A DNA stretch of 64,000 bases from a virus. Shown one piece after another: positions 4,901 to 50,704 of this stretch. The notes under the pieces were generated by a model. It was given only the letters and a program-made list of their open reading frames with translations. It searched no databases and was not told the DNA's origin. The DNA lies in IMG/VR virus record IMGVR_UViG_3300037420_001136, positions 1-64,000 of that record. One strand, given 5' to 3'. Every line of letters starts with the position of its first letter. The stretch's first letter is position 1. A program made the translations under genes and the position numbers.

Positions 4901-5283
4901 AAGAGGCTCTCCTCTGGGAATTAAAACCCAAGCCTGATCTGGAGAAGATGGAGGAAGACATACTGGCGAGAGGTGAGGACCCCTCGCTCTTCCCAATATT
5001 GAACAGCAAGCCTGAGCTCTTTCGAGATTTGGTTTGGATTTGGGAAGGTTTCATGTGTCTTTCTCTATCTCGTCAGTACGGAATGGGCGCACCGCAGCCC
5101 ATCGCTATGAGCGACGTTCTCGCTTATTGCGAATTCTTTCACATCTACGATCCTGTCGACAGAGAGGACTTCCTGTACCACGTTCAGAGGATGGACGCGG
5201 TATTCATGAAGGACTTCAAGGAGAAGAATAAGAACTCGAGCAAGACTAAAGCTGGTCAACTTCCACCGAGGCTAGGCGGATGA
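4897..5283 (+). CDS. Tail assembly chaperone, frameshifted C-terminal part (gpT-like)
   Basis: PEL....WIWEGF..LS.SRQYGMG.PQPI..SD..AY motif typical of gpT segments; in the -1 frame of the slippery site. Confidence 0.75.
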   Translation, partial: LEEALLWELKPKPDLEKMEEDILARGEDPSLFPILNSKPELFRDLVWIWEGFMCLSLSRQYGMGAPQPIAMSDVLAYCEFFHIYDPVDREDFLYHVQRMDAVFMKDFKEKNKNSSKTKAGQLPPRLGG

Positions 5284-8200
5284 GCACTTACGAACTAGGT
5301 ATTGACGGCTCTGGTGCAGAGGCCGGTGCTCAACGAATTGTAAAGTCGTTCGACGCCATCAAGGCTGCTGCTGATCGCATGGAGGGTGGGGTCAGCGCTG
5401 CCGCGAAGAAGGCGAGCTCTTCCTTCGCTGACATGCAGCGCAACGCGCGTCCCGTGAGCGATGCTGCTATTCGCTCGCTCAAAGCTCTCAGCTCGGTGTT
5501 CGCGGGATTTCGGGCTCCGAGCGACGCGGCGGTACGCAACACCATCATCTTCCTTCAGGGACTTAAGTCCGTCGGTACCCTGAATCTAGGTAGGGTTACA
5601 GGTCTCGCCAGCCTTCTCGCTACAATCTCGGGCTACAGAGGTCCTAGCCCCACGGCGGGCAAGAATACTCTGGCAGTTCTGAACGCGTTGAGATTCGTCA
5701 GCACGTTCTCCATGCCCCGCGGCCTCGTACAGATGCTGGCGGCGCTCTCAACCTTCAAGGGTCCGAGTGCTGCGGCAGCTCGTAACGTCACAGCTCTACT
5801 GAACGCCCTGAACAGCTTCAAGGGTGGCTCTGGCCTTACAGCGTCTATTCGTGCATTGCGGGCTCTTACGGAAGCTGCAAATTCAGCTAGGACTTCGCTG
5901 AACTCTCTGAAGGGTGCTGCCCCAAAGACTATCAACATTAAGTCTAACACCAGTCAGGCCGAGAAGGGTATCGGCAACCTCATTAAGTCTAACAACCTAC
6001 TTCAGACAGCTCTCCTTCGTACGCAGACTGCGTGGAACGCGCTCGGGGGAATCCTGGCTGGTAAAGCTATCATCGGTGCTGCGAATGCACTGATTGAGAT
6101 CAACGCACAGCTTCAAGCAGCGACCGGCTCAGCTACGAAGGCCGGTTTTGCCTTCGCATTCATCAGAGAATTGTCCGAGAAGCTAGGACTTGATTTTAGA
6201 AAAGCTGCGGAATCTTTTGGTTTCTTTCTGGGCTCGGTGAAGGGTACTAATCTAACTCTGGATGAGTCTAGACAGATCTTTGAAGGTTTCAGCACCGCTG
6301 CTCGTGCTCTTCAGCTCAGCACAGCAGATGTTGATGGCGTCTTCCGCGCTCTCGGGCAGATGATGTCCAAGGGTAAAATCCAGGCTGAAGAACTTCGTGG
6401 TCAGCTGGGTGATCGTCTTCCAGGCGCCTTCGTTCGTTTCGCAGTTGCCCTGAAGATGACGAAGCCCGGAGAACTGGATCAAGCTCTTAAGAAGGGTGCC
6501 GTCAGCGGCGAGAAGATGAAGCAGGCGATCATTGACGTCGCCAATGCTCTCCAGGTCGAGTTTGCCGGCTCTGCTGACAAGATGTCGAAGACGGTTGACG
6601 CTGCCTTCAATCGTCTTAAGAATGCGTTCACCTTCGCCTCAGGAGATCTCGGCCACAGCGGACTTAATCAAGCTCTCATCAGTGTGATGGATGCGGCCAC
6701 CAAACTTCTCCAATCAAACACACTGAACACTCTCCTCATGGTTTTGGGGAAGGCTTTCAAGTTTCTCGGAGATCACATAGAGGCTGTCGCCACCATCATT
6801 GGAACTTTGGCACTCAGCAGTACTTTGAAGTGGGCCGCTAGTCTGGTGGGGTTGGCTGCGACTTCTACTGCTGCGACCGCTGCCGTCACTGAAACTGCTG
6901 CTGCGACTGCGGCGGCTGGAGGCGTAGCGGCCGAAGCTGCCGTAGCCACGACGGCTCTTGGAGCAGCGTGGGCCAGACTTAATCTCTTCATGAAGGCGAA
7001 TTTATTTGTTCTCATTGCCAGTGCTATTGTTGGTCTTGTTCTCTGGCTGGGAAAATCCTCTGATGCGATGAATGAGAATGCTAAGGCACTAGACGCAGTT
7101 AATGCGAAAATGCCAGATGCGGTGAACTGGTCCGACACGTATGCAGCTCGTCTCTTGAATATTTCTGACAGTGCCAATCAGGTTACTGCAAGTCTACAAG
7201 AGATGATCCAGAAGATGAACGAGTCGGCACTTCGTGCCAGCCAAGAAGATCTTAAAGGACTAGACACGTATAAGCGTATAGCTGAGATTGGTGGCTACGC
7301 CATCCAAGTACGTGATAAGAGCGGTAAGTTTGTAAAAGGACCTGAGGGTTACTTTACAAAAGAGGATCAGGATCTTCTCAATCGAGTGGTGTATCACAGT
7401 CCTACCGGAGGCGTAGCTCTGCGAGGGAACATCCCGCAGACGAGGCAGGAGTTTGAACAACTCGGTGCTGCAATGTCTATGGTGGATACTCGCGCTACAG
7501 GACCTGGAGGGGGTAATTTTGCCCCTATTCAGTCTGCGCTCCACGCTAGATTTAATGCTCTTCTCTCCATGAGTCGCCAGAAGGGTTACAAGGGACTTCC
7601 ATATTCCGATTGGGCTGAACAAATTCTCCCTGAATATAACAAGCCCACCGGAGGAATCTCTGGTGGTGCTCCCGCTCAGACAAAAAAGAAGCATGGTAAG
7701 TCAGAAGCAGAAAAAGCTCAGGATGATATAAACAACGCGATCGATCAAGCTATGAATGGCATGACCGATCTTGAAGGTCGCGCTAAGTCAACTAGCGAAA
7801 GCATCGACAAGCTTCTGAGCGGCTCCTTCGATAAGGTGGGCGCGGCGGCGCACATTGCCGCTGTCGACCAGGAGAAGAGCTTCGAGGACGCTATAAAGGG
7901 TCCTGAGAACAAAATCAAGGGCGTGTTGCAGCTAGCCAAACAGCTAGGCGTCGAGGTTTCCGGGGACACGGAAGCTGATCGCTACAACAGCGCCAAGGAA
8001 GCCATCATCGGCTACATGGAAGCTCGCCAGAAGGCAGCGGCCGAGGCTAAGGCAGACGAGAAGGTCGCCACCGATATTCTGGCTCAGAAACAGGACAACC
8101 AGATTCAGTCTGACGCCATCAATCTTCTTCAGCAGCGTGGAAAATCGCAGGCTGAAGTTAATCGATACATCGAGATTGAGACGGCACTCGTCGGCGTCAG

Positions 8201-10820
8201 CGCAGATAGGAGAGAGGAAGAATACGCCAAGCTGAAGAAGGAGCTCGAGATTCGTGATCAGCTCAAGCTCTCCATGCAGGCCGTCAACGAGCAGCGTGAG
8301 CTAGAGAATAAGCAGAGCGCGGCGGCGATTCTGGCTCCGATGTATCAGCACGGGGCTCGTCAGGAAGACATCGACTACATGCGCGAGTTGGTCGGCTACG
8401 CGCAGGAGCTCGCAGACGCGGGTGCTGATCCAGCACAGCTCAACAACATGGTCGCCACTCGCGCAGCGGCCTTGAATCTAGACCGAGTGATGAAAGATCT
8501 CTCCGATCATTACGAGCAGGCGCGTCAAGCAGCTGGAGATATGGCTGACGCCATCGTCGGTGGATTCCGTGACGGTTTGCAGGCCGGAGACAGCTTCTTG
8601 GATATGTTCAAGAACATCTTCAAGCAGATCTCTAAGATCATCATGGATTTCGTCCTCTTCAATCCTCTGAAGCAGTGGCTTCAGCAGGTTCTCACTCAGA
8701 CTCTCGCACCGAATGCCACGGCTGGATTCGGGGGAGTCGGAACTCCGGCTGGGACCGTCAATTCTTACTCAACCGGAAACGGTCTTCTCGGAGCACTGAA
8801 CACAATTATCGGTGGAATTTCCGGTAGACAGCAAGGCTACTTCCAAGACGTCAATCCGCGGAACGCTCCCGTCTCAGGTGGTCGCGGTTACTTCGACTCT
8901 AACGGAGAGCTAGTCTTCCCGAACTACAGCTCTCCCAATGGCGACGTCGTCGTCACTGGAAGTCGTCAGTCTGGAGTTATTCCCGGGATTAATCCGGCCG
9001 TAATTCCTCCTCCGGCGAAGCAGGCAAGCTTCTTCTCAAACTTCATGCGAACCATGGATCAGAGTCGAGCTGCCTTCGGGACATTTACGAGCTGGGTCAA
9101 GGGTGGGATGCCAGCCGGTGGAGCAGGCGATGCAATAAGCGGGGCGATGGGAGCAGCCGGAACAGCCTTCGCGATGTACCAGACCGGAAACATGATTGGT
9201 AAGTCTGTCGCCAAGGCTCTCGGTGGCGGCTTCCGGACGCAGGCAGTCGCCGGCGGAATTACCGGAGGTGCCGCAGCAGGCTATAGTCTCGGCGGTCCGG
9301 TGGGAGCTGCGATCGGCGCGGTCGTCGGCGGTGTTCTCGGCTTTCTGAAGAAGAAGCCACAGATTCCCAGCTCCTTCGGTGCGGTTAAGGTCGGAGACAA
9401 TGGTGTTGCAATAGTGGGGACGACTGGCACTCATGGAAATGCAGACGCCAAGGTCGGGCAGGCTGCGGCTCAGGCGGGTGCCTCGCTCTTCAATGACTTC
9501 GCTGCAACCTACGGTGGTTATCTCAGTGCCGGAAACTATGGCACCTTCGGCAAGCGCGAGTACGATCCGGCGGGACCTGGAAACAAGGGAATGTACTCGT
9601 TCTGGTCCTCGCGTGGTGTGAATGGAAACGGAAAGCCAGCCGGAACGATGGGCGTAGATTACATCTACGGCACCGACTCGGAAGTTCAGGCTTTCGCGCT
9701 TCTGAAACAAATCCGCGAGGGAATGATCAAGGGCCTCAGCGACACGATCCTTACGGTGGCGAAGAATACGAAGGCCACTACCATGGAGGCTCTACAGTCT
9801 GATCTCGGAATCGGTCAGGCGTACGATCAGTTCATCAAGGGCTCCTTTACTCTCACGGACGTCGCCTCGAAGATTAGCGATCTCAACGAGGCGTTCAACA
9901 AGCTGAAGGCGCAGGCCACTGTTCTTGGTCTCAGCGAGGATAAGCTCGTCAAAGCTCGCCAACGCATGATGAACACGATGAAGGAGGAGTTCAACTTCAA
10001 TATCCAGCAGGGAATTCTAGGTTATACTAATCCTGCGTTAGCCGCCTTCAACCAGTTACAGAAGGAGTACCACGACGCAGTCGAGAGTGCGATGGCAGTC
10101 GGCGGAGACCTCGTTGCCGTGGAAGATCTCTATGGTCGCAAGAGGGCAGATCTCGCGAAGCAATGGGCGGACATCGCCACTAATGGTCTCGCCAGCGCGG
10201 CGCAGGATCTGTACAATTCTCTCACGGCCAGCAGCAACTCTCCGCTCAATACGCAGACTGTGTTCTCCAACGCACGCGATCTGTACACCGGCCTCACCTC
10301 GCAGTTCCTCTCTGGGGACTTCAGTCACGTAGATCAACTCTCTACCTTCGCCCAGAACTATCTGGACGCGGCCCGCCAGATGTACGGGTCTAGCACTGAC
10401 TACTTTGACATCTTCAAGCAGGTCACTGACCAACTCGCAATGTACGAGAACGGCACTGGTCTTCCTGGAACTACGGGTGGCCCGCCTGAGCTTCCGGGTC
10501 TCGACGACATGGTGCAGGAGATTAATGATCAGTCGCTCGAAATGATTGACGCGATGGGTCTAGTCGGTCAGGCAGTCGTGGAGGGAAGCACGAATGTGGT
10601 GGATGCGATCAACAATCTCGCCATTGCTCTAGGACAGAAGATTCCTGCGACGACTACTACGACGACTTCCACTCCGACGGGGCCGACCGCTGGAGGGACT
10701 GGAGTTAGTTCAACAGGAGGAACCTACGGTTCCACTGGCGTCATGGATTCAGGCGGTGTGGACTTTTCGGGCTACACCACCGTCAACGGGAGAACTTTTA
10801 AGGTCAGTGGTACGTACTGA
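5280..10820 (+). CDS. Tape measure protein
   Basis: 1846 aa, Ala-rich and helical; tape-measure motif [27 protein letters not shown]; Gly-rich hydrophobic stretches; follows the chaperones. Confidence 0.95.
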   Translation: [1846 protein letters not shown]

Positions 10821-17063: not shown

Positions 17064-17891
17064 ATGGGAATCTTCTTCGCAGCTCCGATTGACGAGCATC
17101 CTGACTACAACAAGGTGACGACCACGCCGACTTGTTCTACTCAGGACGCCAACTTTCCTGCGTCCAATCTTCTCACGATGGACCCGACTCAGGTATTCAC
17201 GTCCACCATCCAGAATCCCGTCATCCTGTGGGATCTTGGAGCTTCGTATTCCTTCGACGTGGTTTCGCTCATCTACACTAATCTCAGCGACACAGCCACT
17301 CTCTTAATCGAGACCAGCACGGATAACATCTCGTACACGACGCGTTACAACGGTCTCGCGCTGGCCCACGCGATCTCTGGGCAGACGACGCAGAACAAAA
17401 AGAACATGTTGAGAGTGAATCACACTCTCCTCAATCTGTCAAGTCCAGTCACGGCTCGCTATCTTCGCATCACGCCCAACACGCAGATTGCAGGAGTGTT
17501 CCCGACGATCGGTCGACTCTTCGTCGGGAGTAAGTTCACTCCTGCGAATGGCTGGCAGTACGGCTCGCAGTTCACGTTCCAGGATAACTCGCCTAGGCAG
17601 CGCACTGATCGCGGAGCTTTGGTCGTGGATGCACAGCCTGTGATCACAGGAGCCAACGTCAAGCTCGACTTCTCGTCTCGCCAAGAGATGTACGACAATA
17701 TCTACGAGTTCAACTACTGGCGTGGCGGTGCTCGCGAGATCTTAGCCTGCCTAGAGACTGATCCTACTGCTCAGCAGTGGCTTCAAAAGAATCTACTATA
17801 CTGTACCCTCACGGAAGGTCGTACCATCTCGTTCGATGCGTACAACACTCACAGCTCCGCGTGGGTTCTAGAAAGCATTGGCGTCGGGTGA
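17064..17891 (+). CDS. Distal-tail/baseplate-type virion protein (discoidin-like N-terminal domain)
   Basis: FPASNLL, WDLG, ARYLRI, IGRLFVG..FTP..GWQYGS motifs. Confidence 0.6.
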   Translation: MGIFFAAPIDEHPDYNKVTTTPTCSTQDANFPASNLLTMDPTQVFTSTIQNPVILWDLGASYSFDVVSLIYTNLSDTATLLIETSTDNISYTTRYNGLALAHAISGQTTQNKKNMLRVNHTLLNLSSPVTARYLRITPNTQIAGVFPTIGRLFVGSKFTPANGWQYGSQFTFQDNSPRQRTDRGALVVDAQPVITGANVKLDFSSRQEMYDNIYEFNYWRGGAREILACLETDPTAQQWLQKNLLYCTLTEGRTISFDAYNTHSSAWVLESIGVG

Positions 17892-21534: not shown

Positions 21535-21571
21535 TTCCAGACGCCACTAGAAAGGAGTGCAAGAAGTTATC

Positions 21572-22231
21572 ATGGCAACGAAACTCGATACCGAAAAGCG
21601 TCTGTGGGTCGGCCCCACGGCGGTTCGTGCTGGCTCGGTCGTGGACGCAATTCGCTCCGCCGCGAATGATCTCGGCGGCGCTCCGGGAGGCGAGGGTGTC
21701 GCCTACTCGGACCTGGAGAAGCATCTCCTGGAGAACTTCCAGCCCAAGAAGTCGCAGGGCTACGGCCCCTCGTACATTCGGGCCTACGTTCGCGACGCCG
21801 TTCAGCGCTACGGTCATCTCACCAACGACCCCGAGAAGGCGGCCGAGTACAACTCGATCGCCGCGCCGGAGCCGAAGGCCAAGGAGCCCAAGCCCAAGAA
21901 GATGACCAAGGCGCAGCAGGCCGAAATCGACGCGCTGAACTTCATCCGTACGCGCGGTGAAGTCGCGGACGCCGGCGATCTGGACAACACCCAGATCACC
22001 ATCAAGGACTTCGTGACCGAGACGGGCAAGAAGTCCAAGACGGTGCAGAACCAGATCGAGAAGCTCGAGAAGGACGGCCTCGTCCGCACCGAGTCTCGCG
22101 GCGAGGGCGGCGACGAAGCGACCTACGTCTTCCTTACGCAGGCCGGTCTGAGCCGTCTGCAAGAAGTCGAGTCGCAGGCGACTGGCGAGCCGACGACCGC
22201 GACGGGAAGCGACGGCGGTCTGGCCGAATAA
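21572..22231 (+). CDS. Putative DNA-binding protein with a C-terminal winged HTH
   Basis: TIKDFVTETGKKSKTVQNQIEKLEKDGLV...YVFLTQAG (MarR-like wHTH); Lys/Pro linker; start may be GTG 21557. Confidence 0.6.
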   Translation: MATKLDTEKRLWVGPTAVRAGSVVDAIRSAANDLGGAPGGEGVAYSDLEKHLLENFQPKKSQGYGPSYIRAYVRDAVQRYGHLTNDPEKAAEYNSIAAPEPKAKEPKPKKMTKAQQAEIDALNFIRTRGEVADAGDLDNTQITIKDFVTETGKKSKTVQNQIEKLEKDGLVRTESRGEGGDEATYVFLTQAGLSRLQEVESQATGEPTTATGSDGGLAE

Positions 22232-22314: not shown

Positions 22315-23208
22315 GTGAACCAAGAGAACTACGAGACATTCGTTCATTATCTTAATGAGCGCGAGTTAATTCGGCAGAAGCGCGCTCGCGGAGAGCCGGG
22401 ACCCTGGACGGGAGACCCCATTCTCAGCCGCTACAAGTTCACCAACATCTTGCGGATCTACGATCGCACGACGCAGTGGCTCGTCAAACACTGGTACAAT
22501 CCGCGGCGAGGCAATACGTCAAAACAGATTCTGGCGCTCAACTGCGCCATCGCCCGCTACTTCGGAAGTATCGAGTTTCTGGAGGACGTCGGCTTCCAAG
22601 ACTCGTGGGATCCTGACTTCCTAATTCGTCGCGCCTCCGAGCGTCTCCGCAATCACCAGAAGGTCTTCACAGGCGCGTACATCATCACGAACGCTGGGAG
22701 CACAGACCCGAAGCAAAACGTCGTGGTGTCGCAGTTCCTGACGCCGTACCGTATGAATCTTGATAAGATCGTACGTCTGGCCGAGAATCACAATTCGTGG
22801 AAGGTCGTCTGCGAGTTTCTCCAGACGCTACCGGGAATCGGTGCCTTCATGGCGAAGGAGATTGCACTGGACATGCTGCTGACTCCGGTGCTGGAGCATG
22901 CGACCGACAAGCTAACGTGGTCGCCGGCCGGACCCGGAGCCATCCGTGGTCTCAACCGTCTGCACGATCGTCCCTTGCAGAAGGGGCTGACGCAGGCTCA
23001 GGCTCAGCACGAGATGCAGGCGCTCCTCGTCAAGCTCTCAGCAGATCGCGCGTTCGAGGACTACATGCCCGAGATTGGCGTTAAGTTCGGCGTCACGGAC
23101 GTTCAGTTCTGTCTCTGCGAGTTGGACAAGTATCTCCGTGTGAAGAACGGAGAGGGTCGGCCACGCTCGGGATACGACTATCGCAAGGCAAAACCACTGG
23201 TCTTTTGA
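22315..23208 (+). CDS. 5-hydroxymethyluracil DNA kinase (5-HMUDK; formerly aGPT-Pplase1 family)
   Basis: Y..ERE.IR..R..G.PGPWT.DPIL..YKFTNI.R.YDRTT, FTGAY, PG.G.FMA.EI..D, GPGA.RGL.RL and Q..LCE.DKY.R motifs. Confidence 0.85.
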   Translation: MNQENYETFVHYLNERELIRQKRARGEPGPWTGDPILSRYKFTNILRIYDRTTQWLVKHWYNPRRGNTSKQILALNCAIARYFGSIEFLEDVGFQDSWDPDFLIRRASERLRNHQKVFTGAYIITNAGSTDPKQNVVVSQFLTPYRMNLDKIVRLAENHNSWKVVCEFLQTLPGIGAFMAKEIALDMLLTPVLEHATDKLTWSPAGPGAIRGLNRLHDRPLQKGLTQAQAQHEMQALLVKLSADRAFEDYMPEIGVKFGVTDVQFCLCELDKYLRVKNGEGRPRSGYDYRKAKPLVF

Positions 23209-23234
23209 GACACCCTGCGCTAAAAGGAAGTGGC

Positions 23235-23492
23235 ATGAGAGAGCCTCCACGCAAGCTTGATATAGCCGACGTCGGAACTAATCCCGACGTCACGAATGTT
23301 CGCTTGTATCTCAACGGAGTTCAGCAGACGAGAGTCCTGCGATACGATATGGACGAGGGGTGGCTAGTTCGACATCGCATGAAGGACGACAAGCCAGTAC
23401 TTCGCGGCGACGAGTGGCTCACCGAGCGCATCCGGTTCGAGGAAGGGGAACTCGTCGTCAAGTGGTTTGACGAGAGCAGAGTTCAAGACTAG
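23235..23492 (+). CDS. Hypothetical protein
   Basis: ATG 23235 behind AAGGAAG; small beta protein inside the modification cluster. Confidence 0.55.
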   Translation: MREPPRKLDIADVGTNPDVTNVRLYLNGVQQTRVLRYDMDEGWLVRHRMKDDKPVLRGDEWLTERIRFEEGELVVKWFDESRVQD

Positions 23493-23512
23493 AAAGGCTG
23501 AGAATCGGCAGG

Positions 23513-23725
23513 ATGGCTGACTCTGACAAGCTGGATCTTCCCGACTTCGCAGCTGCGAGAATGTTCGTAGTTGTTCGTGTGGGGAAGAACGTAGGAACTA
23601 TCGACATAGTCCTTGACAAGTTGCTCTGTAACATCAAGACTCGCGAAGAATTTGAGAAGAGAGCAAAACAACTCGGACTTCACTTCAACGAGGATTTCAC
23701 AACCCTGCCGATACGGAAAGACTGA
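23513..23725 (+). CDS. Hypothetical protein
   Basis: 70 aa ORF in operon order. Confidence 0.5.
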   Translation: MADSDKLDLPDFAAARMFVVVRVGKNVGTIDIVLDKLLCNIKTREEFEKRAKQLGLHFNEDFTTLPIRKD

Positions 23726-23727
23726 GA

Positions 23728-23934
23728 ATGCAGATTCGCTATAGATTTGGTCGTCTGCTCGACGTAATTCGCAATTCTATCTGGGCGAGGAACCAGGAAA
23801 GAATCTGGAGAACCAAGGCCTCTGTCGATCAACTCAACCAGATAATTGATCGTCTCGAGATGGGCGTCTCAACACCAGATCAAAGAGCCGCACTTAATCT
23901 AGCTAGAATGCTTCGCAAGAGACTAGGAGCCTAG
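23728..23934 (+). CDS. Hypothetical protein
   Basis: 68 aa basic ORF in operon order. Confidence 0.5.
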   Translation: MQIRYRFGRLLDVIRNSIWARNQERIWRTKASVDQLNQIIDRLEMGVSTPDQRAALNLARMLRKRLGA

Positions 23935-23937
23935 AAT

Positions 23938-24753
23938 ATGCAGATCTACATACCGACGCGTGACCGCGTCAATGCTCAGTTTACGTGGGATAATCTGACG
24001 TCAGCCCTCCGCGGTGTTACCACCTTGGTATGCCCACCGGAGGAGGTCGAGGCCCATCGAGCTGCTCGTCGAACAGCGGTGGCGCGGCCCCCTGTGCGGT
24101 TGGCCGCTGTGCGGCAGTGGATTGTCGACAAGCTTGCAAACCCGGACGAGCCTGTGATTATGTTGGACGACGATCTGGCGTTCTTCGTCCGCAAGTCGCC
24201 GGAAGCCCACAATCTGCGTCCGGCTGGCGAGGACGTTGAGTATATCTTCAGGCGTCTCAACGATTTGGTCCGACGTCCGGCGAATGGAGTTGTTCACGCC
24301 GGACTGTCTCCGCGTCAGGGAAATAACTGGGCTTTCCCCGAGACAGAACTCTACATCGAGCGGATGAACGCCGTTCACTGCGTTCTGCCGGAGGCGCTGA
24401 GGCACTACGGAATTCGCTATGACGACGTTGACATGATGGAGGACTACCATGTCGTTCTTTCGCTATTCGAGAAAGGCGAGAAAAACGTCGTTATCACGGA
24501 TGCTGCGTGGGATCAGTGCAAAGGAAGCGGAGCTCCAGGAGGCTTCAGCCACTACCGAACTAGCGAGACTCAGGCGGCGGCGGCTGAGCGCCTTGCGGAA
24601 CTTCATCCGAAGTCGGTCAAAGTCGTAGAGAAGGAACCCAAGACCGGCTCAGGAGGCTTCGCTGGCAAGCGCAAGGACGTCCGCGTTCAGTGGAAGAAGG
24701 CGTACCAGACGCGCGATCCTCAGTTCATCAATCCCAGCTTCCGGAGGTCCTGA
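23938..24753 (+). CDS. GT-A glycosyltransferase (TAGT/GREB1/base-J glucosyltransferase-like)
   Basis: IYIPTR.R, RQWI, IMLDDDL (DxD), EDY...L.L...G, APGG.S.YRT and L..LHP..V....K...R..VQWKKAY motifs. Confidence 0.8.
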   Translation: MQIYIPTRDRVNAQFTWDNLTSALRGVTTLVCPPEEVEAHRAARRTAVARPPVRLAAVRQWIVDKLANPDEPVIMLDDDLAFFVRKSPEAHNLRPAGEDVEYIFRRLNDLVRRPANGVVHAGLSPRQGNNWAFPETELYIERMNAVHCVLPEALRHYGIRYDDVDMMEDYHVVLSLFEKGEKNVVITDAAWDQCKGSGAPGGFSHYRTSETQAAAAERLAELHPKSVKVVEKEPKTGSGGFAGKRKDVRVQWKKAYQTRDPQFINPSFRRS

Positions 24754-24992
24754 TGCGGGACAAGCAGGGAAGGACCTACATCAAACTCACGGAGCTCCGA
24801 GAAGGTGGCTACGTGGTCTGTGACGGCGACTTTCCGTGCATTCCCGCATGGTCTCGGAAGAAGGTCTTCCGCAACGACGTCGGCTTCTTCGTGGAGTGCG
24901 AGACACGCGTTCGTCACTATCTCGAGCCACAGCTTCAGCCAGACGGATCTTTAATCGGCGTGTACCCCGACGGTACTAGAACAGGACTATAG
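24753..24992 (+). CDS. Hypothetical protein
   Basis: ATG overlaps the GT stop (TGATG) behind GGAGG; DGDF.CI motif. Confidence 0.55.
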   Translation: MRDKQGRTYIKLTELREGGYVVCDGDFPCIPAWSRKKVFRNDVGFFVECETRVRHYLEPQLQPDGSLIGVYPDGTRTGL

Positions 24993-26057
24993 ATGTACAG
25001 TTTTGAGATTGATTGTCCCAACGAGGGACTCGGCCGCGTCATGCAGGCGCTCAGGACCGAGGGCATCATCACCGACAGCCGCAACGGCCCCGTCATTCGC
25101 TTTCCCAAGCCGGTGTGCCTGGAGTACCCCAATCCTCGCCGGCGAGTCCTAGATCATCCCGTGCGCGACGCCAACCACTTCTTTCATCTGATCGAGACCA
25201 TGTGGATGTTCGCAGGTCTCAACACGGTCGCCCCGCTTGATCTCTTCAACGAGCAGTTCAAGCAGTACTCCGACGACGGCAAGACCTTCGCGGCACCCTA
25301 CGGCTTTCGCTGGCGGCACCACTTCAAGATGGACCAGCTCCAGTACGTCGTGGACAAGCTTCGCAAGAATCCCGAGGATCGCCGCATCGTCCTTCAGATC
25401 TGGGATCCCGAGGAGTTGAAGAAGCCGAGCGGCAAGGACTTCGCGTGCAACCAGAACATCATGTTCGACACGAGACCTGCCGGACAGGGTTTCACAGGCG
25501 GATACTTCCTCGACATGACGGTGACCAATCGCAGCAACGATTTAATCTACGGCGCGATGGGAAGCAATCTGTTTCACATGTCGATGCTGCATGAGTACAT
25601 CGCGCATCACGCCGGACTAGCGCTCGGCACCTACTATCAGTTCTCAAAGAACATGCACCTGTACCTGGAGAATCCCGTCTCGAAGCGCTGCTGGCAGCGG
25701 ATGGACGAGTTCTCCGAGGGCCTGAAGAATAGGTTCGAATCGCCCGAGCAAGACAGATCTCTGAGCGAGTACGGTCTCACCCTGGGCATGAATCCCCTGA
25801 AGAACTTCGTCAACTCTCACGTCGTGCCTGATTCCGAGGCGGGAACGTATCTGAACAAAGTTGTCAAACCGATCGTCGAGGCATACAAGATCTACAAGCT
25901 GAAGCGACGCATCGGCCTAGACACCCCCATCGAGCTTCGTGTAGATCTGGCTATCGAGATTCTCAACGAGTGCAAGTCCGAGGCTCTCCGCTCCGCCTGC
26001 ATCGGCTGGCTGACGGACAAGGTTCACAAAGCTAAAGAAAAGAGGAAGGCCGCGTAA
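24993..26057 (+). CDS. dUMP hydroxymethylase (thymidylate synthase superfamily)
   Basis: SRNG, RDAN.FFHL.E..WM.AG, YG.RWR..F..DQL, DRR.VLQIWD, KDFAC (catalytic Cys), NRSND..YGAMGSN (Asn consistent with dUMP specificity), NMHLY. Confidence 0.85.
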   Translation: MYSFEIDCPNEGLGRVMQALRTEGIITDSRNGPVIRFPKPVCLEYPNPRRRVLDHPVRDANHFFHLIETMWMFAGLNTVAPLDLFNEQFKQYSDDGKTFAAPYGFRWRHHFKMDQLQYVVDKLRKNPEDRRIVLQIWDPEELKKPSGKDFACNQNIMFDTRPAGQGFTGGYFLDMTVTNRSNDLIYGAMGSNLFHMSMLHEYIAHHAGLALGTYYQFSKNMHLYLENPVSKRCWQRMDEFSEGLKNRFESPEQDRSLSEYGLTLGMNPLKNFVNSHVVPDSEAGTYLNKVVKPIVEAYKIYKLKRRIGLDTPIELRVDLAIEILNECKSEALRSACIGWLTDKVHKAKEKRKAA

Positions 26058-26605
26058 TGGACTTTGTCGAGGCGTGGCGCTCTGGCACCGTCAGGCGCTA
26101 TCACACGATGGAGGCTATCGAGTCTAATCTCGTCAGTCAGCACACTTGGGGAGTCGTTCTTCTCATTCTGATGTTGTGGCCTGACGCGCCTCGTCAGCTT
26201 CTAATCGCCGCCGAGCTCCACGACTTCGGAGAGAAGGCTACGGGCGACATGCCCGGACCTGTGAAGTGGGGTAATCCGGTGCTGGAATCCGAGATGGATC
26301 GGATGGAGCGCGCCCACATGAAGGCTCGTCTCCCCGACACCTTGCTTCAGCTCCTTGAGTCGGTGGACGAGGTTCAGTGGGGCTTGGTCGAGTTATGTGA
26401 TCGCGCGGAGTTCTGCATCAGCATGATTCAGGAGCGCATGCTCGGCAACAAGTTCACCGAGATCTACTACAAGCGGGCGTGGGACAAGATGACCCTCGTG
26501 CTAGAACAGTTCAGAGATCGCTTCCTGGCGATTCCCGGAGTGTTCGACAGCATCGTTGAGATGCGCCGCAACATAGACTCATACTGGAGAGAGGCGAGGA
26601 AGTAG
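26057..26605 (+). CDS. HD-domain deoxynucleotidase (YfbR/DatZ-like)
   Basis: VRRYHT, VSQHTWGV, LHDFGE..TGDMP and CDRAE motifs. Confidence 0.8.
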   Translation: MDFVEAWRSGTVRRYHTMEAIESNLVSQHTWGVVLLILMLWPDAPRQLLIAAELHDFGEKATGDMPGPVKWGNPVLESEMDRMERAHMKARLPDTLLQLLESVDEVQWGLVELCDRAEFCISMIQERMLGNKFTEIYYKRAWDKMTLVLEQFRDRFLAIPGVFDSIVEMRRNIDSYWREARK

Positions 26606-26607
26606 AC

Positions 26608-27120
26608 ATGGGACATTATGACAACTGCCGTCCTGGGAACTGTGTTCGCTGCGGACAATCCGGGGGATACTGCGATTGCACTCGGGCTGACGCAACTCTC
26701 ATAAATCCCGACCCCGACAAGAAGCTTTCAGCCAACGAAATTCAGCACGGCGGATCTCACTACAAGGGCGCGAAGTTCCAGCACTGGGACTTGATCGCCA
26801 AGAACAAGATCGGCTATCTGGAGGGCTGTGCCTCCAAGTATGCCTCGCGCTGGCGCAAGAAGAATGGTCTGGAAGACTTGCAGAAGGGGGTCCACTACTG
26901 CGACAAGATTCTGGAAGTCATAGCAGAGTACGACTACAAGCCGACGGGTCGTGCACCCTACAGCGATCTCCAGATGTTCTTCGACCAGAACGACATTACT
27001 GACCGGGATGAACAGCTTGCGATCTCACATCTGTGCACGTGGGACTCGACCCTGTGCATCCAGCTAGCTCGCAAGCACATGGTCTTGTTGCTCGAGAAGG
27101 CTCAGGCGCTGGCGGCTTAA
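26608..27120 (+). CDS. DUF3310 protein (T7 gp1.7-like putative nucleotide kinase) with N-terminal Cys cluster
   Basis: ANEIQHGGSHYK...QHWD, YLEG...KY..RW.KKNG.EDL.K..HY; N-terminal CxxxxCxxCxxxxxxCxC. Confidence 0.7.
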   Translation: MGHYDNCRPGNCVRCGQSGGYCDCTRADATLINPDPDKKLSANEIQHGGSHYKGAKFQHWDLIAKNKIGYLEGCASKYASRWRKKNGLEDLQKGVHYCDKILEVIAEYDYKPTGRAPYSDLQMFFDQNDITDRDEQLAISHLCTWDSTLCIQLARKHMVLLLEKAQALAA

Positions 27121-27212: not shown

Positions 27213-29192
27213 ATGCTGGATATGTTCAGTGACCTGCCCGAGTTGCATGGGCCGATCACACTAGACAACGAAACTCACGACCCTCTTCTAAAAGTCCGCG
27301 GCTCCGGCTGGTCATACTCTCGCGAGGGCCAGAACGGTGGCAAGATAATCGGCATCGCGGTGCACGCCGACAACTTTCACGAGTACCTTCCGATTGGTCA
27401 CACGGAGGGGAACCTAGATCCAGTGAAGATTAAGTCCTGGCTCAGTCAGCAGCTGACGAAGGACGATTCCCAGCCGAAGATCTTCTTCCACGCTCAGTAC
27501 GACGTCGGCTGGTTTCAGGCCGAGGGCATCAAGATCAGAGGGCGAATAGAGGACGTAAGCTTCCAGGCACCACTGGTGGACGAGCATCGTCCGAACTATC
27601 AGCTAGATCGTCTGGCTAAAGACCTCATCGGCCGAGGAAAGGACGAGCGGGCGCTGGCCGAGGCTGCGAAGAAGCTCGGCGTGAAGAACACGAAGGCTGA
27701 CAACATCAAGATGCATCTCATGCGGGTGCATCCAGACGTAGTCGGCATCTATGGTCGCGAGGACGTGGCGATCACTAGAGAGCTCTGGGATTTCTACAAT
27801 CCCATCATGGAAGAGCAGAACCTCTGGGACGTTTATCATCTCGAGTGTGATCTGATTCCAATGCTCGTGGACATGCGGATGCGCGGTGTTCGCGTAGACG
27901 TCGCGGGCATAGAAGTGCAGCAGCGTATTCTCGTAGCTGCGGAGGACGAGGCTCGAAAGTTCATCAGAGATAAGACCGGCATCACAGTCGGTAGCTGGGA
28001 CAATGCTAATGAACTCTCTCGCATCTTCGACAAGCTCGGCATCAAGTACGGTCTTACCGAGAAAACCGAGCAGCCGAGTATCACTGCTGACTGGCTGCGC
28101 TCGCTACAGCACCCCGTCTCAGACGCTATTCTTCGTGGTCGTAAGACGAACAACATCAGATCCACCTTCCTAGAAAACAATCTCTTGAACTTGCAGGAAG
28201 GTGGACGCATCTTCCCGAACTTCAATCCTCTGAAGAAGGACGACGAGTCTGGCGGCGTTCTGGGCAAGGAGCTGAAGGCTGGCGTCAAGGGCGCGCTGTC
28301 GGGCCGGTTCAGTTCCTCGCAGCCGAACTTCCAGAACTTTCCCTCTCCCGAGAAAGATCCTGAGCTCGGACTGATGGTTCGCAGCATGATCTTACCCGAG
28401 GAGGGTGAGTTCTGTCACGTCATGGACTACTCCTCGCAGGAGCCTCGCCTGACGGTTCACTTCGCCGAGGTCACCGGCTGTCACAAGGCGTTCGAGATGG
28501 CCGAGCGCTTTAGGCAGAATCCTTACACCGACTTACACGACGAGACGCGCAAGAACGTGGCCTCGCTTCTTCAGGAGTGGTCTGATCCCAAGTATCGCAA
28601 GAAGGCGAAGATAATTAATCTCGGCGTGGCCTACGGGATGGGTGGCGGAAAGCTGGCACTCTCCCTAGGTCTTCCGTACACCGAGGCCTCCTTCATGAAG
28701 GGAGATCAGGAGTTTCAATATCTCAAGGCAGGCCCCGAGGCTCAGGAGCTGATGGCTGTCTTCGACGAGGCTGCGCCGTTCATCAAGCAGCTCGCGCGAA
28801 AGGCCCAGAACGCAGTCAAGCAGAAGGGTTACATCAGGACGCCCATCGGACGACGATTCCGCTTCCCGAAGGAAGACGACGGTCGCACGTACAAATTCCT
28901 GAACAAAGCTCTCAACCGACTTATTCAGGGCAGCGCCGCGGATATGACGAAGCTCGCGCTGCGGGACATGTATCGGGAGGGTATTCTTCCGATGGGAACC
29001 GTGCACGATGAAATTGACATCAGCTCCGCCTCTGTGAAGGAAGTTCATCGCGTGCAGGAAATCATGGAGACCGCGATGGAGCTGACGATTCCCATCAAGA
29101 TCGACGTCGCGTCTGGCCGGAATTGGGGTGAGGCGTCCCAGGAGAAGGCCGGTGCAGAGAACTATAAGAAGTTTCTAGAAGGAGCACTATAA
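27213..29192 (+). CDS. polA: DNA polymerase family A with 3'-5' exonuclease domain
   Basis: Exo motifs LDNET, HAQYD, YGRED; Pol motifs GRFSSSQPNFQN, DYSSQEPR, KIINLGVAYGMG, NRLIQGSAAD, VHDEI. Start uncertain (TTG 27123 or ATG 27213). Confidence 0.93.
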   Translation: MLDMFSDLPELHGPITLDNETHDPLLKVRGSGWSYSREGQNGGKIIGIAVHADNFHEYLPIGHTEGNLDPVKIKSWLSQQLTKDDSQPKIFFHAQYDVGWFQAEGIKIRGRIEDVSFQAPLVDEHRPNYQLDRLAKDLIGRGKDERALAEAAKKLGVKNTKADNIKMHLMRVHPDVVGIYGREDVAITRELWDFYNPIMEEQNLWDVYHLECDLIPMLVDMRMRGVRVDVAGIEVQQRILVAAEDEARKFIRDKTGITVGSWDNANELSRIFDKLGIKYGLTEKTEQPSITADWLRSLQHPVSDAILRGRKTNNIRSTFLENNLLNLQEGGRIFPNFNPLKKDDESGGVLGKELKAGVKGALSGRFSSSQPNFQNFPSPEKDPELGLMVRSMILPEEGEFCHVMDYSSQEPRLTVHFAEVTGCHKAFEMAERFRQNPYTDLHDETRKNVASLLQEWSDPKYRKKAKIINLGVAYGMGGGKLALSLGLPYTEASFMKGDQEFQYLKAGPEAQELMAVFDEAAPFIKQLARKAQNAVKQKGYIRTPIGRRFRFPKEDDGRTYKFLNKALNRLIQGSAADMTKLALRDMYREGILPMGTVHDEIDISSASVKEVHRVQEIMETAMELTIPIKIDVASGRNWGEASQEKAGAENYKKFLEGAL

Positions 29193-29683
29193 TGGCTGAG
29201 TCTGGTATCGTTCCCGGAGAGGGAATTCTCTCGGAAGAGTATCGCTACGAGGATCTGTCAGTCTTTCCCGTCAACATCACTCCGTTGCGCGAGGGTGTGA
29301 TAATTCCGAAGAAGGGGTCTATTCAGGCGGCGGGCTACGACTTAGTCGCCGTTGAAGATGTGACGATTCATGTTGGCGAGATCACGAAGATCCCACTCGG
29401 CTTTGCGACCGCTCTGCATCCCGACATTCACTGCCGAATCGAGTCCCGCTCCGGCATGGCTCTCAAGGGTGCCGTCGTCGTCACTGGAGTGATAGACGCA
29501 GACTATCGCGGCGAGTGGAATGTAATCATGATCAATCTCGGCAAGAGTGTGTTGAATATTGCCAAGGGAGACCGCGTGGCCCAAGCTGTGTTTAGGCCCA
29601 CGGTGCGGGCGCATTTTGAGCCTACGGTAGAGCTCTCAGAAACTCGCAGGGGCGTCGGTGGCTTTGGTAGCACAGGCAGGTGA
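29192..29683 (+). CDS. dut: Trimeric dUTPase
   Basis: All five motifs present: AAGYDL, RSG, GVIDADYRGE, RVAQ, RGVGGFGSTG. Confidence 0.95.
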   Translation: MAESGIVPGEGILSEEYRYEDLSVFPVNITPLREGVIIPKKGSIQAAGYDLVAVEDVTIHVGEITKIPLGFATALHPDIHCRIESRSGMALKGAVVVTGVIDADYRGEWNVIMINLGKSVLNIAKGDRVAQAVFRPTVRAHFEPTVELSETRRGVGGFGSTGR

Positions 29684-38939: not shown

Positions 38940-39776
38940 ATGAAATGTGTTCTTCACTCAGAAAGCAACCGTGGCCTCGGCTGGCGTCCAGATCTACCCG
39001 ACTTCCGAGATCATCGCTACAGCGCGTCGGCGCACGGACAGGTGGAGCTTTCACAACCTCTCCCCGTTCGACACGAGGCTCCACGATTCCGCAAGCTTGA
39101 GATCAAGAACCAACGCAATATCGGAAGCTGTACTGGTCAGGCTTGGTCTCGGGAAGCTGCTCGCGAGCGGAAGCTGACACCGCAGTCAGCACTCGCCATC
39201 TACTACGAAGAGCGTCGCATCAACGGAGAGACCGAGATCGACGCTGGCGCCTACATTCGCGACGGAGCCAAGGTCGTGACCAGCTACGGCGTTCCGACCG
39301 AGAAGCTGTGGCCCGACGTTGACGACAACGTCTTCCGCGACCCCAGCGCCAAGGCCGACAAGGATGCCTCGCGGAAAGTCTTCGGCGAGTATCTTCGCGT
39401 CGGCCCCAGCCAGCAGGAGATGTGCGCCGTCATCGCCAGCGGGCATGGATTCGTGATGGGTATCTCCTGCTACGACTCGATGTTCACCTCGATCACGGAT
39501 CGTACCGGCATCATTTCCTATCCTCAGCCCGGAGAATCTCTCCAGGGCGGACATGCTCTTCAGTACGGCGGCTACGATCTTAAGTTCCGCGAGTCTGAGG
39601 CAGCACAACGCTTTCGCGCGATGGGCTTCCCGGACAGCGTCATCCCCGAGCAGGTGCTCATCTTCGCGAATAGCTGGGACGTCTCGTGGGGAGACGGTGG
39701 CTACGGCTATCTTGACATGCGCTTCGCCGTCGACGAGAATCTCGCTGACGACCGTTGGACGATTCGGGTAAAATAA
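38940..39776 (+). CDS. Papain-like (C1A) cysteine peptidase
   Basis: GWRPDLPD.RD N-terminus, Q..IGSCTG (Gln/Cys), GGHA (His), NSW..SWG..GY (Asn). Confidence 0.85.
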   Translation: MKCVLHSESNRGLGWRPDLPDFRDHRYSASAHGQVELSQPLPVRHEAPRFRKLEIKNQRNIGSCTGQAWSREAARERKLTPQSALAIYYEERRINGETEIDAGAYIRDGAKVVTSYGVPTEKLWPDVDDNVFRDPSAKADKDASRKVFGEYLRVGPSQQEMCAVIASGHGFVMGISCYDSMFTSITDRTGIISYPQPGESLQGGHALQYGGYDLKFRESEAAQRFRAMGFPDSVIPEQVLIFANSWDVSWGDGGYGYLDMRFAVDENLADDRWTIRVK

Positions 39777-42285: not shown

Positions 42286-43440
42286 CTACTGAGCCGGAGC
42301 TAGTCCCTCCAGGCAGTCGCTGAACAGATAGAGACCAACCGTCTCCGTCGAGTTGTACGGAACGCCTACGAGAAGATACGCTCCCTCAGGATGAGGATTC
42401 GGCGAGACATCCACATCTGCCTCGCTACGATACGGCGTCCAGCCCCAAGCATTCGGCAGAAGAGTGAAAACGTCTCCCTGATTTATGACTTGCCCCTCCT
42501 GAAGCGTGCACTGCTTCATAGCTCTCGCGTACTGCGCTCCCTTCAATGGCACGACCGTCCAGCCGGATGGCGTCGGTTCGGGCGGCGGTTCCGGAACTGC
42601 ATCATCGTCAGCGATGGTGATGATGCCTGAGCGGCTCACCTGAGCGTTTGTCACAGGGGTGATGGTGATGTTGAAGTTCTCTGGATCTTCATGCTCGGCA
42701 TCGTTGATGATAGTCACAGGAATGTAGAATCCCGTGGCACCGGCTGGCACCGTGATATCGCCGGAGGAAGCCACGTAATCTACTCCCGGCACGGCTGTCC
42801 CATGCCCCGGATTGATCTCGTAGTGAACAATGGACAAGAGACCATTGTCTCCGGTCTTGGGCACGAAGTACTGGAAGCTTCCGACACTCTCCTGCACCGT
42901 CTGGTCTGGGGGACCGAACGTCGGCGGAGGAGTTGGCTCTGGCGGTTGAGCAACGTCGGAGTCTGTAATCGTACCAATCGCGCTTCCGGTGCCGATCTGT
43001 GCGTTCAACGACGCGGTAATCGTCGCCTGAAGGGTTTCGGTTCCCTCCGGCACATCGTCGTTCACGAGACTGACGACCTGATTCTTCACAGCCTCACCAG
43101 TACCGAACTGAACGCTGGAGGTGAGAGGAACGAAGTCCGAACCCGCCAGAGCCGTCTGGCCGGAGACTGTGAACTGAACGGTCGAGATGTTCGTCAGGTC
43201 ACCCGTTCTGCTGAGCTGAAAGATGAGCTGCCCCTCGTTCTCGTCAGCCGTGGCGGACGAGATAGAGATTGTAGGAGCGACGGGCGTCGGCGTGGGAGTC
43301 TGCTTGACGCAATGGTTCCCTTGACGAATATACCCGCTGGGACAGTTCACCACAGGCTTCGCTGCGGCAACTACCGAGTCTGTGTCAGTCGTACAGGCAG
43401 TCGTCGCCAGAAGGATGCCGACTATAAGAGAAATTCGCAT
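42286..43440 (-). CDS. Lipoprotein with two Calx-beta domains
   Basis: Signal peptide and lipobox (LATTA-C); two repeats of E..G...F...RTG....STV.F.....TA.AG.D....F..GE.......V.L.ND...E..E; Pro-Thr linkers. Confidence 0.8.
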   Translation of the reverse strand: MRISLIVGILLATTACTTDTDSVVAAAKPVVNCPSGYIRQGNHCVKQTPTPTPVAPTISISSATADENEGQLIFQLSRTGDLTNISTVQFTVSGQTALAGSDFVPLTSSVQFGTGEAVKNQVVSLVNDDVPEGTETLQATITASLNAQIGTGSAIGTITDSDVAQPPEPTPPPTFGPPDQTVQESVGSFQYFVPKTGDNGLLSIVHYEINPGHGTAVPGVDYVASSGDITVPAGATGFYIPVTIINDAEHEDPENFNITITPVTNAQVSRSGIITIADDDAVPEPPPEPTPSGWTVVPLKGAQYARAMKQCTLQEGQVINQGDVFTLLPNAWGWTPYRSEADVDVSPNPHPEGAYLLVGVPYNSTETVGLYLFSDCLEGLAPAQ

Positions 43441-50242: not shown

Positions 50243-50689
50243 TTAGGTGGTCTGGAATCTCCCTAAGAATTCTCTAAGTGACTGCTCGATAAAGAGTTTA
50301 TTAGCGTAGGAATTATAGTAACGATTACGTCCGCTAGGATGTGGAATGATCAGCACATCCTTGTGGGCGTACCCGAAGGGCTGATAACGAAAGTTCTGTG
50401 GTAGAGCCATCGCAGCATCTCGCCCGAGGACGATGAACCTAGCTTCGTTCACACAGCGAAGCTTCTCCAAGCGCTTCTTCATACGCTCGCGAACTTCGGG
50501 TGCCGTCGTGGGAGTCGTGTGGTCGTCCACCACGTTGTAGCGTATCGTCTCGTTGAGGTACTCTTCCTGAGACATTCCCAGCATCTTCATCAGTCTCGCC
50601 GCCGCTCCCGTCGTCGTATGTGGAAACAGTGGCCGAGCTGGATCCGTGTTCGGCCCCGGACGCTCGCCGAATATGATTATCTTAGTCAT
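50243..50689 (-). CDS. Uracil-DNA glycosylase superfamily protein
   Basis: IFGERPG, G.A.RL...LG, YN, IVLGRDA and PHPSGRNR.YN motifs. Confidence 0.7.
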   Translation of the reverse strand: MTKIIIFGERPGPNTDPARPLFPHTTTGAAARLMKMLGMSQEEYLNETIRYNVVDDHTTPTTAPEVRERMKKRLEKLRCVNEARFIVLGRDAAMALPQNFRYQPFGYAHKDVLIIPHPSGRNRYYNSYANKLFIEQSLREFLGRFQTT

Positions 50690-50704
50690 AGTGCACAGAA
50701 ACAC

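Follow-up and report, generated by a model that had tools for sequence, protein, structure and literature searches.

How would a phage that pairs a supposed 5-hydroxymethyldeoxyuridine (hmdU) DNA kinase with a glycosyltransferase modify the thymine of its DNA? This question is raised by a block of genes at positions 22,315 to 27,120 of the IMG/VR virus record IMGVR_UViG_3300037420_001136. The window analysed is the first 64 kb (64,000 nucleotides) of that record, a contig of 91,890 bp. The block encodes a protein of family PF18723 (HMUDK_hel), a GT-A glycosyltransferase (GT) of the TAGT family, an enzyme with the thymidylate synthase (TS) fold, an HD nucleotidase and a DUF3310 protein. An earlier, sequence-only reading took the first of these for the kinase. 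The comparisons described here point elsewhere: the operon probably replaces thymine with hmdU and then O-glycosylates the hmdU, giving a base-J-like DNA with no DNA kinase involved.

The PF18723 protein and the supposed kinase

The gene at 22315..23208 (+ strand) encodes a protein of 297 amino acids (aa) whose sole Pfam match is PF18723 (148 bits), covering positions 3-277 of the 281 in the model. Its closest cultured relatives are ORF055 (gp55) of phage M6 and the orthologs of this protein, with 33% identity over 96% of the length; the sister records name these orthologs either "aGPT-Pplase clade 1", which is the former name of the family, or "5-hmdU DNA kinase helical domain". PaMx11 gp50 and PhiW-14 gp72 also belong to the family. 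Its present Pfam name, "5-hmdU DNA kinase, helical domain", probably stems from gp186 of phage SP10, in which an N-terminal kinase is fused to a C-terminal PF18723 domain (PMC5889632). Regarding names, Table 3 of PMC5889632 and Table 1 of PMC8989533 put M6 gp51 and gp55 in opposite aGPT-Pplase classes, and GenBank calls the P-loop 5-hmdU DNA kinase "terminase small subunit" in PaMx11 gp49 and Bhz59_00040.

Judged by its sequence and its modelled structure, the protein encoded by open reading frame (ORF) 22315 is no kinase. Its 297 residues contain no Walker A motif (GxxxxGK[ST]), and apart from a GTGKT in the tail-tube protein that is due to chance, a six-frame P-loop scan of the whole genome picked out the SNF2, the RecD-like and the primase-helicase ORFs only. 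The families fall on separate proteins in the M6-type phage AN14: the 187-aa ortholog of gp54, a P-loop kinase, matches HMUDK_HMUD1 (PF18748); the ortholog of gp51, an amino-acid:DNA transferase (AADT), matches ADDT (PF18724); and AN14_14, the ortholog of gp55, matches HMUDK_hel (190 bits). The PF18748 model gives M6 gp54 65 bits and finds nothing in the whole 91.9-kb genome at E<=1. At the same threshold PF18724 matches neither the ORF 22315 protein nor anything else in the genome, the part outside the window included. Both families are also missing from five related records with a GT-type cluster, two of them 97-100% complete, and tblastn of the genome with the M6 kinase, AADT, pyridoxal phosphate (PLP) and radical S-adenosylmethionine (SAM) proteins returned chance matches only. 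When the M6 pathway was reconstituted in lysate, gp54 and gp51 were enough to make N-alpha-glycinylthymidine, and the product was still formed without gp55 (PMC8989533).

These results bear directly on the proposal of the sequence-only reading that a 5-hmdU DNA kinase and the GT share one hydroxymethyl group, so that the DNA would carry either a mosaic of phospho-hmdU and glycosyl-hmdU or a sugar-phosphate-hmdU. The Pfam name of PF18723 and the SP10 fusion speak for a kinase at this locus, but ORF 22315 has no P-loop, a PF18748 kinase domain is found neither in the genome nor in the five related records, the M6 kinase is a separate protein (gp54) in a system whose gp51 product does not depend on gp55, and the fold of ORF 22315 is that of a transferase or glycosylase. 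The proposal is extremely improbable.

The same reading had reported that AADT, PLP and radical SAM genes are absent from the window, and for the AADT and radical SAM genes the absence extends to the whole genome: the radical SAM family PF04055 is not found there, in a search that matched 14 of 14 control genomes. For PLP enzymes the search was narrower, consisting of an empty tblastn with the M6 PLP protein and of Pfam scans of 60 ORFs (all those of at least 200 aa except the 1846-aa ORF at 5280-10820), in which no PLP family appeared. What had been overlooked is that the supposed kinase is itself a predicted paralog of the AADTs.

This relationship emerges from the structural model. The AlphaFold2 (AF2) model of the ORF 22315 product, built with 36 homologs, is all-helical, with a mean predicted local distance difference test score (pLDDT) of 95. 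Foldseek returns weak matches to HhH-GPD glycosylases, DUF2419 and PaMx11 gp46, and VIA-align places the PaMx11 5-phosphomethyldeoxyuridine (5-PmdU) glycinyltransferase gp46 first (8z2n_B; Z 11.3, which is modest for a helical protein; root-mean-square deviation 4.1 A over 231 of 288 residues), followed by the OGG, AGOG and Mag1 glycosylases (Z 8-10). Base flipping has been described for PaMx11 gp46 (PMC11472151). An LPGIG hairpin is present in the ORF 22315 protein, and in the C-terminal helix of the latter residues C268, E269 and K272 (Cys-Glu-x-x-Lys) are invariant among the 36 homologs; the pattern [LFV]CExxK is present in all 27 of the full-length PF18723 members collected, GT-linked and kinase-linked alike. 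The Cys stands on a helix with the pattern [E/Q]xxLC, as in the AADTs: ORF 22315 reads QFCLCE and M6 gp55 EHTLCE, as against ETVLC in the AADT M6 gp51, where both the Cys and the Glu are essential (PMC8989533).

The likeness to the AADTs (PaMx11 gp46 and M6 gp51; PDB 8z2n) thus consists of the best structural match and of a Cys on the homologous C-terminal helix. Unlike them, the ORF 22315 protein does not belong to PF18724 by sequence, its invariant Glu directly follows the Cys (+1) while that of the AADTs precedes the Cys by four residues (-4), and no kinase is present here or in the relatives, so that the 5-PmdU substrate cannot be made. A comparison of the PF18723 alignment with M6 gp51 by hhalign matched them over no more than 24 columns, at the GxG hairpin, with a probability of 0.3%, which is not significant. 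From the model we conclude that PF18723 is an AADT paralog with a base-flipping fold of the helix-hairpin-helix type, predicted to be catalytically competent, and we take it to be an enzyme that would attack C6 of a 5-substituted uracil in DNA.

Two proposals can be made for the reaction of such an enzyme. According to the first, PF18723 is an active group transferase that places a non-sugar moiety or linker on the C5-methylene of hmdU, the leaving group being water or a sugar installed by the GT; the GT would then either decorate the added moiety or serve as the activating step, and the end product would be a thymidine bearing both linker and sugar, not base J. The AADT-like fold with its conserved Cys, Glu and Lys favours this proposal, as do the linker-bearing glycosylated thymidines that occur naturally in SP-15, YerA41 and Carin-5 (PMC12686479) and the AADT of phage ViI, which uses a hydroxyl as the nucleophile to form an ether (PMC8989533). 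The absence of the activating kinase counts against the proposal and, together with the distribution of the family (see below), makes it rather unlikely. The second proposal, which is quite unlikely, is that PF18723 converts the hmdU left untouched by the tailoring module to thymine in situ, through addition of the Cys to C6 and an exocyclic methylene. The step from hmdU to T in PhiW-14-type phages has been stated to be unexplained (PMC5889632). If the second proposal were true, it would explain why PF18723 stands beside either kinase and AADT or GT, as the common core partner of the hydroxymethylase, and the phage DNA would carry glycosyl-hmdU and T in a sequence-specific mosaic that involves no kinase.

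The glycosyltransferase, the predicted hydroxymethylase and the proposed pathway

The GT (23938..24753, + strand) is present in a single copy in the genome and matches Pfam TAGT with 48.2 bits (cut-off 27.5) and phrog_842 with 136 bits. Its description from the letters alone as a GT-A enzyme with a DDD motif is borne out: the three Asp residues of the motif MLDDDL (D77, D78 and D79) are invariant among 33 homologs, and the AF2 model (pLDDT 94) has the GT-A fold, with RmlT, TarP, TarS and GnT-I as the top Foldseek matches (E 1e-6 to 1e-5). RmlT, TarP and TarS are likewise the structural neighbours reported for phage DNA GT-A enzymes (bioRxiv 10.1101/2023.12.21.572611). On sequence and model, the protein is a predicted DNA (hmdU) glycosyltransferase of the TAGT family. 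A predicted complex of the GT with the PF18723 protein scored 0.00, in a prediction with no controls that counts neither for nor against binding.

With the phage GT-A DNA glycosyltransferases and the kinetoplastid base J glucosyltransferase (JGT) this enzyme shares the GT-A fold, the DxD motif, membership of Pfam TAGT and, as predicted here, a 5-hydroxymethylpyrimidine in DNA as the target. The difference lies in the origin of the hydroxymethyl group: the characterised phage enzymes use 5-hydroxymethylcytosine (5hmC) made by a methyltransferase and TET, whereas here the neighbouring gene bears the signature of a hydroxymethylase specific for deoxyuridine monophosphate (dUMP). No Tet_JBP domain (PF12851) is found in the whole genome, and the TS-fold enzyme would be the source of the hydroxymethyl group. 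JGT resembles the studied phage GT-A enzymes at the level of the fold only, a comparison that does not include the present GT; the same study describes GT-A genes next to thymidylate synthase homologs in metaviromes, but neither aGPT-Pplase nor HMUDK nor any kinase is named in it (bioRxiv 10.1101/2023.12.21.572611).

The TS-fold enzyme (24993..26057, + strand; Pfam Thymidylat_synt 76 bits, phrog_5131 310 bits) has as its best solved relatives the cytidine monophosphate hydroxymethylase MilA and thymidylate synthases. The Pfam match and the alignments to both support the catalytic Cys and the dUMP-type Asn noticed earlier: the Asn stands at the "PFN" position of TS, where MilA has Asp. Three residues before the catalytic Cys there is an Asp where TS has Leu (motif DFAC), and the Asp of RSxD is kept, so that the motifs read DFAC, RSND and GSN. 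The residues that discriminate among these activities are, in E. coli numbering, N177 for dUMP against deoxycytidine monophosphate, L143 for methyl against hydroxymethyl transfer, and D169N for 5-hydroxylation (PMC13326640). The signature DxxC / RSND / G[SA]N is found in 22 of the 31 TS-like ORFs of related loci, namely those in which the catalytic Cys was picked up, M6 and Bhz59 among them, and RSND / G[SA]N in 30 of the 31; the pattern search did not pick up the catalytic Cys motif of PaMx11. The protein is 36% identical to the M6 enzyme, with the same synteny (PF18723, TS-like, HD, DUF3310, PolA), and is best read as a predicted dUMP hydroxymethylase.

The genes that follow have the same orientation. 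They encode a YfbR-like HD 5'-deoxynucleotidase (26057..26605; Pfam 41 bits), a DUF3310 protein (26608..27120; Pfam 29 bits) whose relatives in PHROG bear the annotation of nucleotide kinase and whose actual start may lie downstream of 26608, a family A DNA polymerase, PolA (27225..29192, in an ORF that is open from 27033 with homology from near 27225), and a dUTPase (29192..29683; Pfam). We infer that three of these proteins, namely the nucleotidase, the DUF3310 protein and the dUTPase, have a place in a pathway of thymidine replacement.

A further alternative is that the GT modifies something other than DNA, such as a phage protein or a polymer of the host surface, or that the TS-fold enzyme acts simply as a thymidylate synthase, in which case the virion DNA would be canonical or carry plain hmdU. 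Although teichoic-acid GTs are the nearest solved structures, this alternative is very unlikely in view of the membership of the TAGT family, the hydroxymethylase signature of the TS-fold enzyme, and the location of the GT amid replication and nucleotide-metabolism genes, beside the hydroxymethylase, in phages of Proteobacteria, an actinophage and a jumbo phage.

In the preferred reading, that of direct glycosylation of hmdU, the dUTPase would supply dUMP, the TS-fold enzyme would convert it to 5-hydroxymethyl-dUMP, and the DUF3310 protein would be the likely monophosphate kinase; the HD nucleotidase would remove thymidine monophosphate, and the phage PolA would put hmdU in T positions. After replication, the single TAGT enzyme would move a sugar from a nucleoside diphosphate (NDP)-sugar onto the 5-hydroxymethyl oxygen, yielding a glycosyl-hmdU of the base J type. 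Since the hydroxymethyl oxygen is the nucleophile, prior phosphorylation would not be needed. The 60-ORF scans revealed no sugar-nucleotide, PLP, methyltransferase or other modification enzymes, and a host NDP-sugar is therefore the likely donor. Of the phage base J that had been suggested for this locus, the hmdU and its direct glycosylation by a TAGT enzyme are supported as predictions from the genes, and the phosphorylation part is abandoned. Elsewhere in the genome of this phage, predicted to send dUMP into hmdU, lies a gene (50243-50704, - strand) for a protein of the uracil-DNA glycosylase (UDG) superfamily, with a Pfam score of 35.6 bits and an identity of 30% to the UDG of M6 type.

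Distribution of the cluster and its tailoring modules

IMG/VR scans with the GT and one distant GT homolog gave 26 loci. Wherever the TS-like gene and the region 5' of the GT both lay on the fetched piece, PF18723 was in the same cluster, at identities down to 25% and in three gene orders: PF18723-GT-TS; GT-GT-PF18723-TS; and GT, an unassigned stretch of ~1 kb, then PF18723-TS. The combination of PF18723, TAGT GT and hydroxymethylase without kinase or AADT is found in ~24 other loci, those of the cultured phages PhiJL001, phiRSL1 and LuckyBarnes among them. Over ~40 loci, PF18723 accompanies either kinase and AADT or the TAGT GT(s), and both together in none; the kinase-type loci are those of the M6-type phages, Bhz59, PaMx11 and RHph_I65, and in YungSlug only the kinase was seen within the 11 kb fetched. 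Matches to PF18723 occur in only six Bacillus phage records, in keeping with the reported lack of the family in SPO1, a phage whose hmdU is unprocessed (PMC5889632).

The M6/YuA and PaMx11 clusters (and also those of ViI, PhiW-14 and SP10) share with the present one the core and the order PF18723, hydroxymethylase, HD, DUF3310, PolA, at 31-36% identity, as well as hmdU as the precursor, predicted here from the genes. Unlike it, the M6/PaMx11-type clusters hold the PF18748 kinase, the PF18724 AADT and PLP/radical SAM or flavin adenine dinucleotide/acetyltransferase tailoring enzymes, in place of which a TAGT GT is found here. Judged by its genes, the cluster adds to the known thymidine hypermodification systems a new variant of the sugar type that lacks the kinase and is common in uncultured phages.

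Megablast of the locus against cultured phages gave no match. The triad of PF18723, TAGT GT(s) and TS-like enzyme within one cluster is carried by the cultured phages PhiJL001 (gp19/gp22/gp24), LuckyBarnes (gp38-gp41) and phiRSL1 (ORF230-238). These differ from the present cluster in their sequences (25-45% identity), and LuckyBarnes has two GTs, while phiRSL1 has three together with NDP-sugar enzymes, an adenosine 5'-phosphosulfate (APS) kinase and a sulfotransferase. The literature search found no virion-DNA nucleoside analysis for PhiJL001; no such search was made for phiRSL1 or LuckyBarnes.

In a maximum-likelihood tree of PF18723 the GT-type and kinase-type members interleave, PhiJL001 (GT) being sister to PaMx11 (kinase) with 100/100 support. 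It follows from this interleaving that tailoring modules appear to have been swapped around a core of PF18723 and hydroxymethylase; this core would be the conserved part of the pathway, into which either a kinase and AADT module or a GT module is plugged. The conserved Cys, Glu and Lys, the occurrence of PF18723 in every hmdU-processing lineage examined and the dispensability of M6 gp55 for the gp51 product together suggest that PF18723 acts on hmdU-DNA whichever tailoring module is present. A role of PF18723 as a GT-specific adaptor was also considered and rejected as the main explanation, because the tree interleaves GT-linked and kinase-linked members and because one genome, MW202897.1 (L020; complete, 40.4 kb), has the GT without PF18723. 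This genome carries the GT, the pyrimidine hydroxymethylase, the HD and the DUF3310 genes, and PF18723 is found nowhere in the record.

Several of these observations also apply to the group-transferase proposal for PF18723. Its tight and ancient co-occurrence with the GT speaks for that proposal, but the interleaved tree argues for a role that is independent of the tailoring module, MW202897 has a GT without PF18723, and the tandem GTs of some clusters together with the sulfotransferase of phiRSL1 suggest that glycans are the end products.

The tandem GTs are two TAGT paralogs beside PF18723 and the TS-like gene, seen in four IMG/VR loci (L013 and L021-L023) and in LuckyBarnes (L032; gp39/gp40), and they suggest di-saccharide or two-sugar modifications. 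The TS-like protein of LuckyBarnes, gp41, is unusually long (517 aa). In the Ralstonia jumbo phage phiRSL1 (L031), ORF230-238 encode a TS-like protein, PF18723 (ORF231), three TAGT GTs, an NDP-sugar pyrophosphorylase, a nucleotidyltransferase, the APS kinase and a galactose-3-O-sulfotransferase, a gene content from which a hydroxymethylpyrimidine bearing a sulfated oligosaccharide can be predicted for this cultured phage.

Direct glycosylation of hmdU, the reading preferred here, has its own difficulties. The characterised TAGT/GT-A phage enzymes act on 5hmC and not on hmU (bioRxiv 10.1101/2023.12.21.572611), the signature that separates hydroxymethylases from thymidylate synthases rests on few characterised enzymes, and no paper giving the DNA product of a cluster with PF18723, GT and hydroxymethylase came up in the literature search. 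A simple glycosylation, moreover, does not account for the strong conservation of PF18723 beside the GT; in MW202897 the two are uncoupled, which is consistent with direct glycosylation but does not show what PF18723 does.

Genomic setting and meaning of the proposed kinase-less branch

At its two ends (1-127 and 91764-91890) the contig carries an exact direct repeat of 127 bp, on the basis of which it is probably a complete genome, although CheckV estimates 78%. Between ~19.6 and 33 kb every credible gene lies on the + strand, with close packing, and the ORFs of the cluster proved to be real at the coordinates first assigned to them, co-oriented and directly before PolA and dUTPase. Genes were assigned by Pfam and PHROG profile scans. 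Upstream of the cluster lie an SNF2 helicase gene (starting at 17777), genes for Pam3 gp32-, gp33- and gp34-like proteins (19656, 20009 and 20662, respectively), and the gene of a helix-turn-helix protein (21557..22231, +) with a weak MarR_2 match, which occupies the same position just 5' of the PF18723 gene in close relatives (L003-L012, 41-99% identity). A FEN-like 5'-3' exonuclease gene and then a RecD-like helicase gene lie 3' of 29683.

Within the cluster there are four small ORFs with no family match, all on the + strand. A 95-aa ORF (23205..23492) is kept in the nearest relative only, and a 100-aa ORF (24690..24992), which overlaps the 3' end of the GT gene, in L003 and L004. The other two, of 70 and 68 aa (23513..23934), have no tblastn match in any of the related loci examined, including the closest relative L003; in L003, whose PF18723 is 99% identical, the GT directly follows the 95-aa ORF. 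The segment 23493-23937 is probably a recent insertion of ~450 bp that lies outside the pathway. A scan for promoters and terminators gave no signal above shuffled background. Two features further along the window are unrelated to the cluster: a weak Peptidase_C1 (papain-family) match at 38940-39776 (+), directly 3' of a gene resembling ribonucleotide reductase, and a protein with two Calx-beta domains at 42286-43440 (-).

As to the biology of these phages, the annotation "5-hmdU DNA kinase helical domain" cannot be taken to indicate a kinase, and clusters of the present type are not to be read as phospho-hmdU pathways. PF18723 stands out as the main unassigned enzyme of hmdU pathways, given that it occurs in every hmdU-processing lineage examined and yet is dispensable for the reconstituted glycine transfer of M6. 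The association of hydroxymethylase, PF18723 and TAGT GT would represent a widespread second, kinase-less branch of thymidine hypermodification, and from it one would expect phage DNA, that of the cultured PhiJL001, LuckyBarnes and phiRSL1 included, to contain thymidines that resemble base J or bear oligosaccharides.

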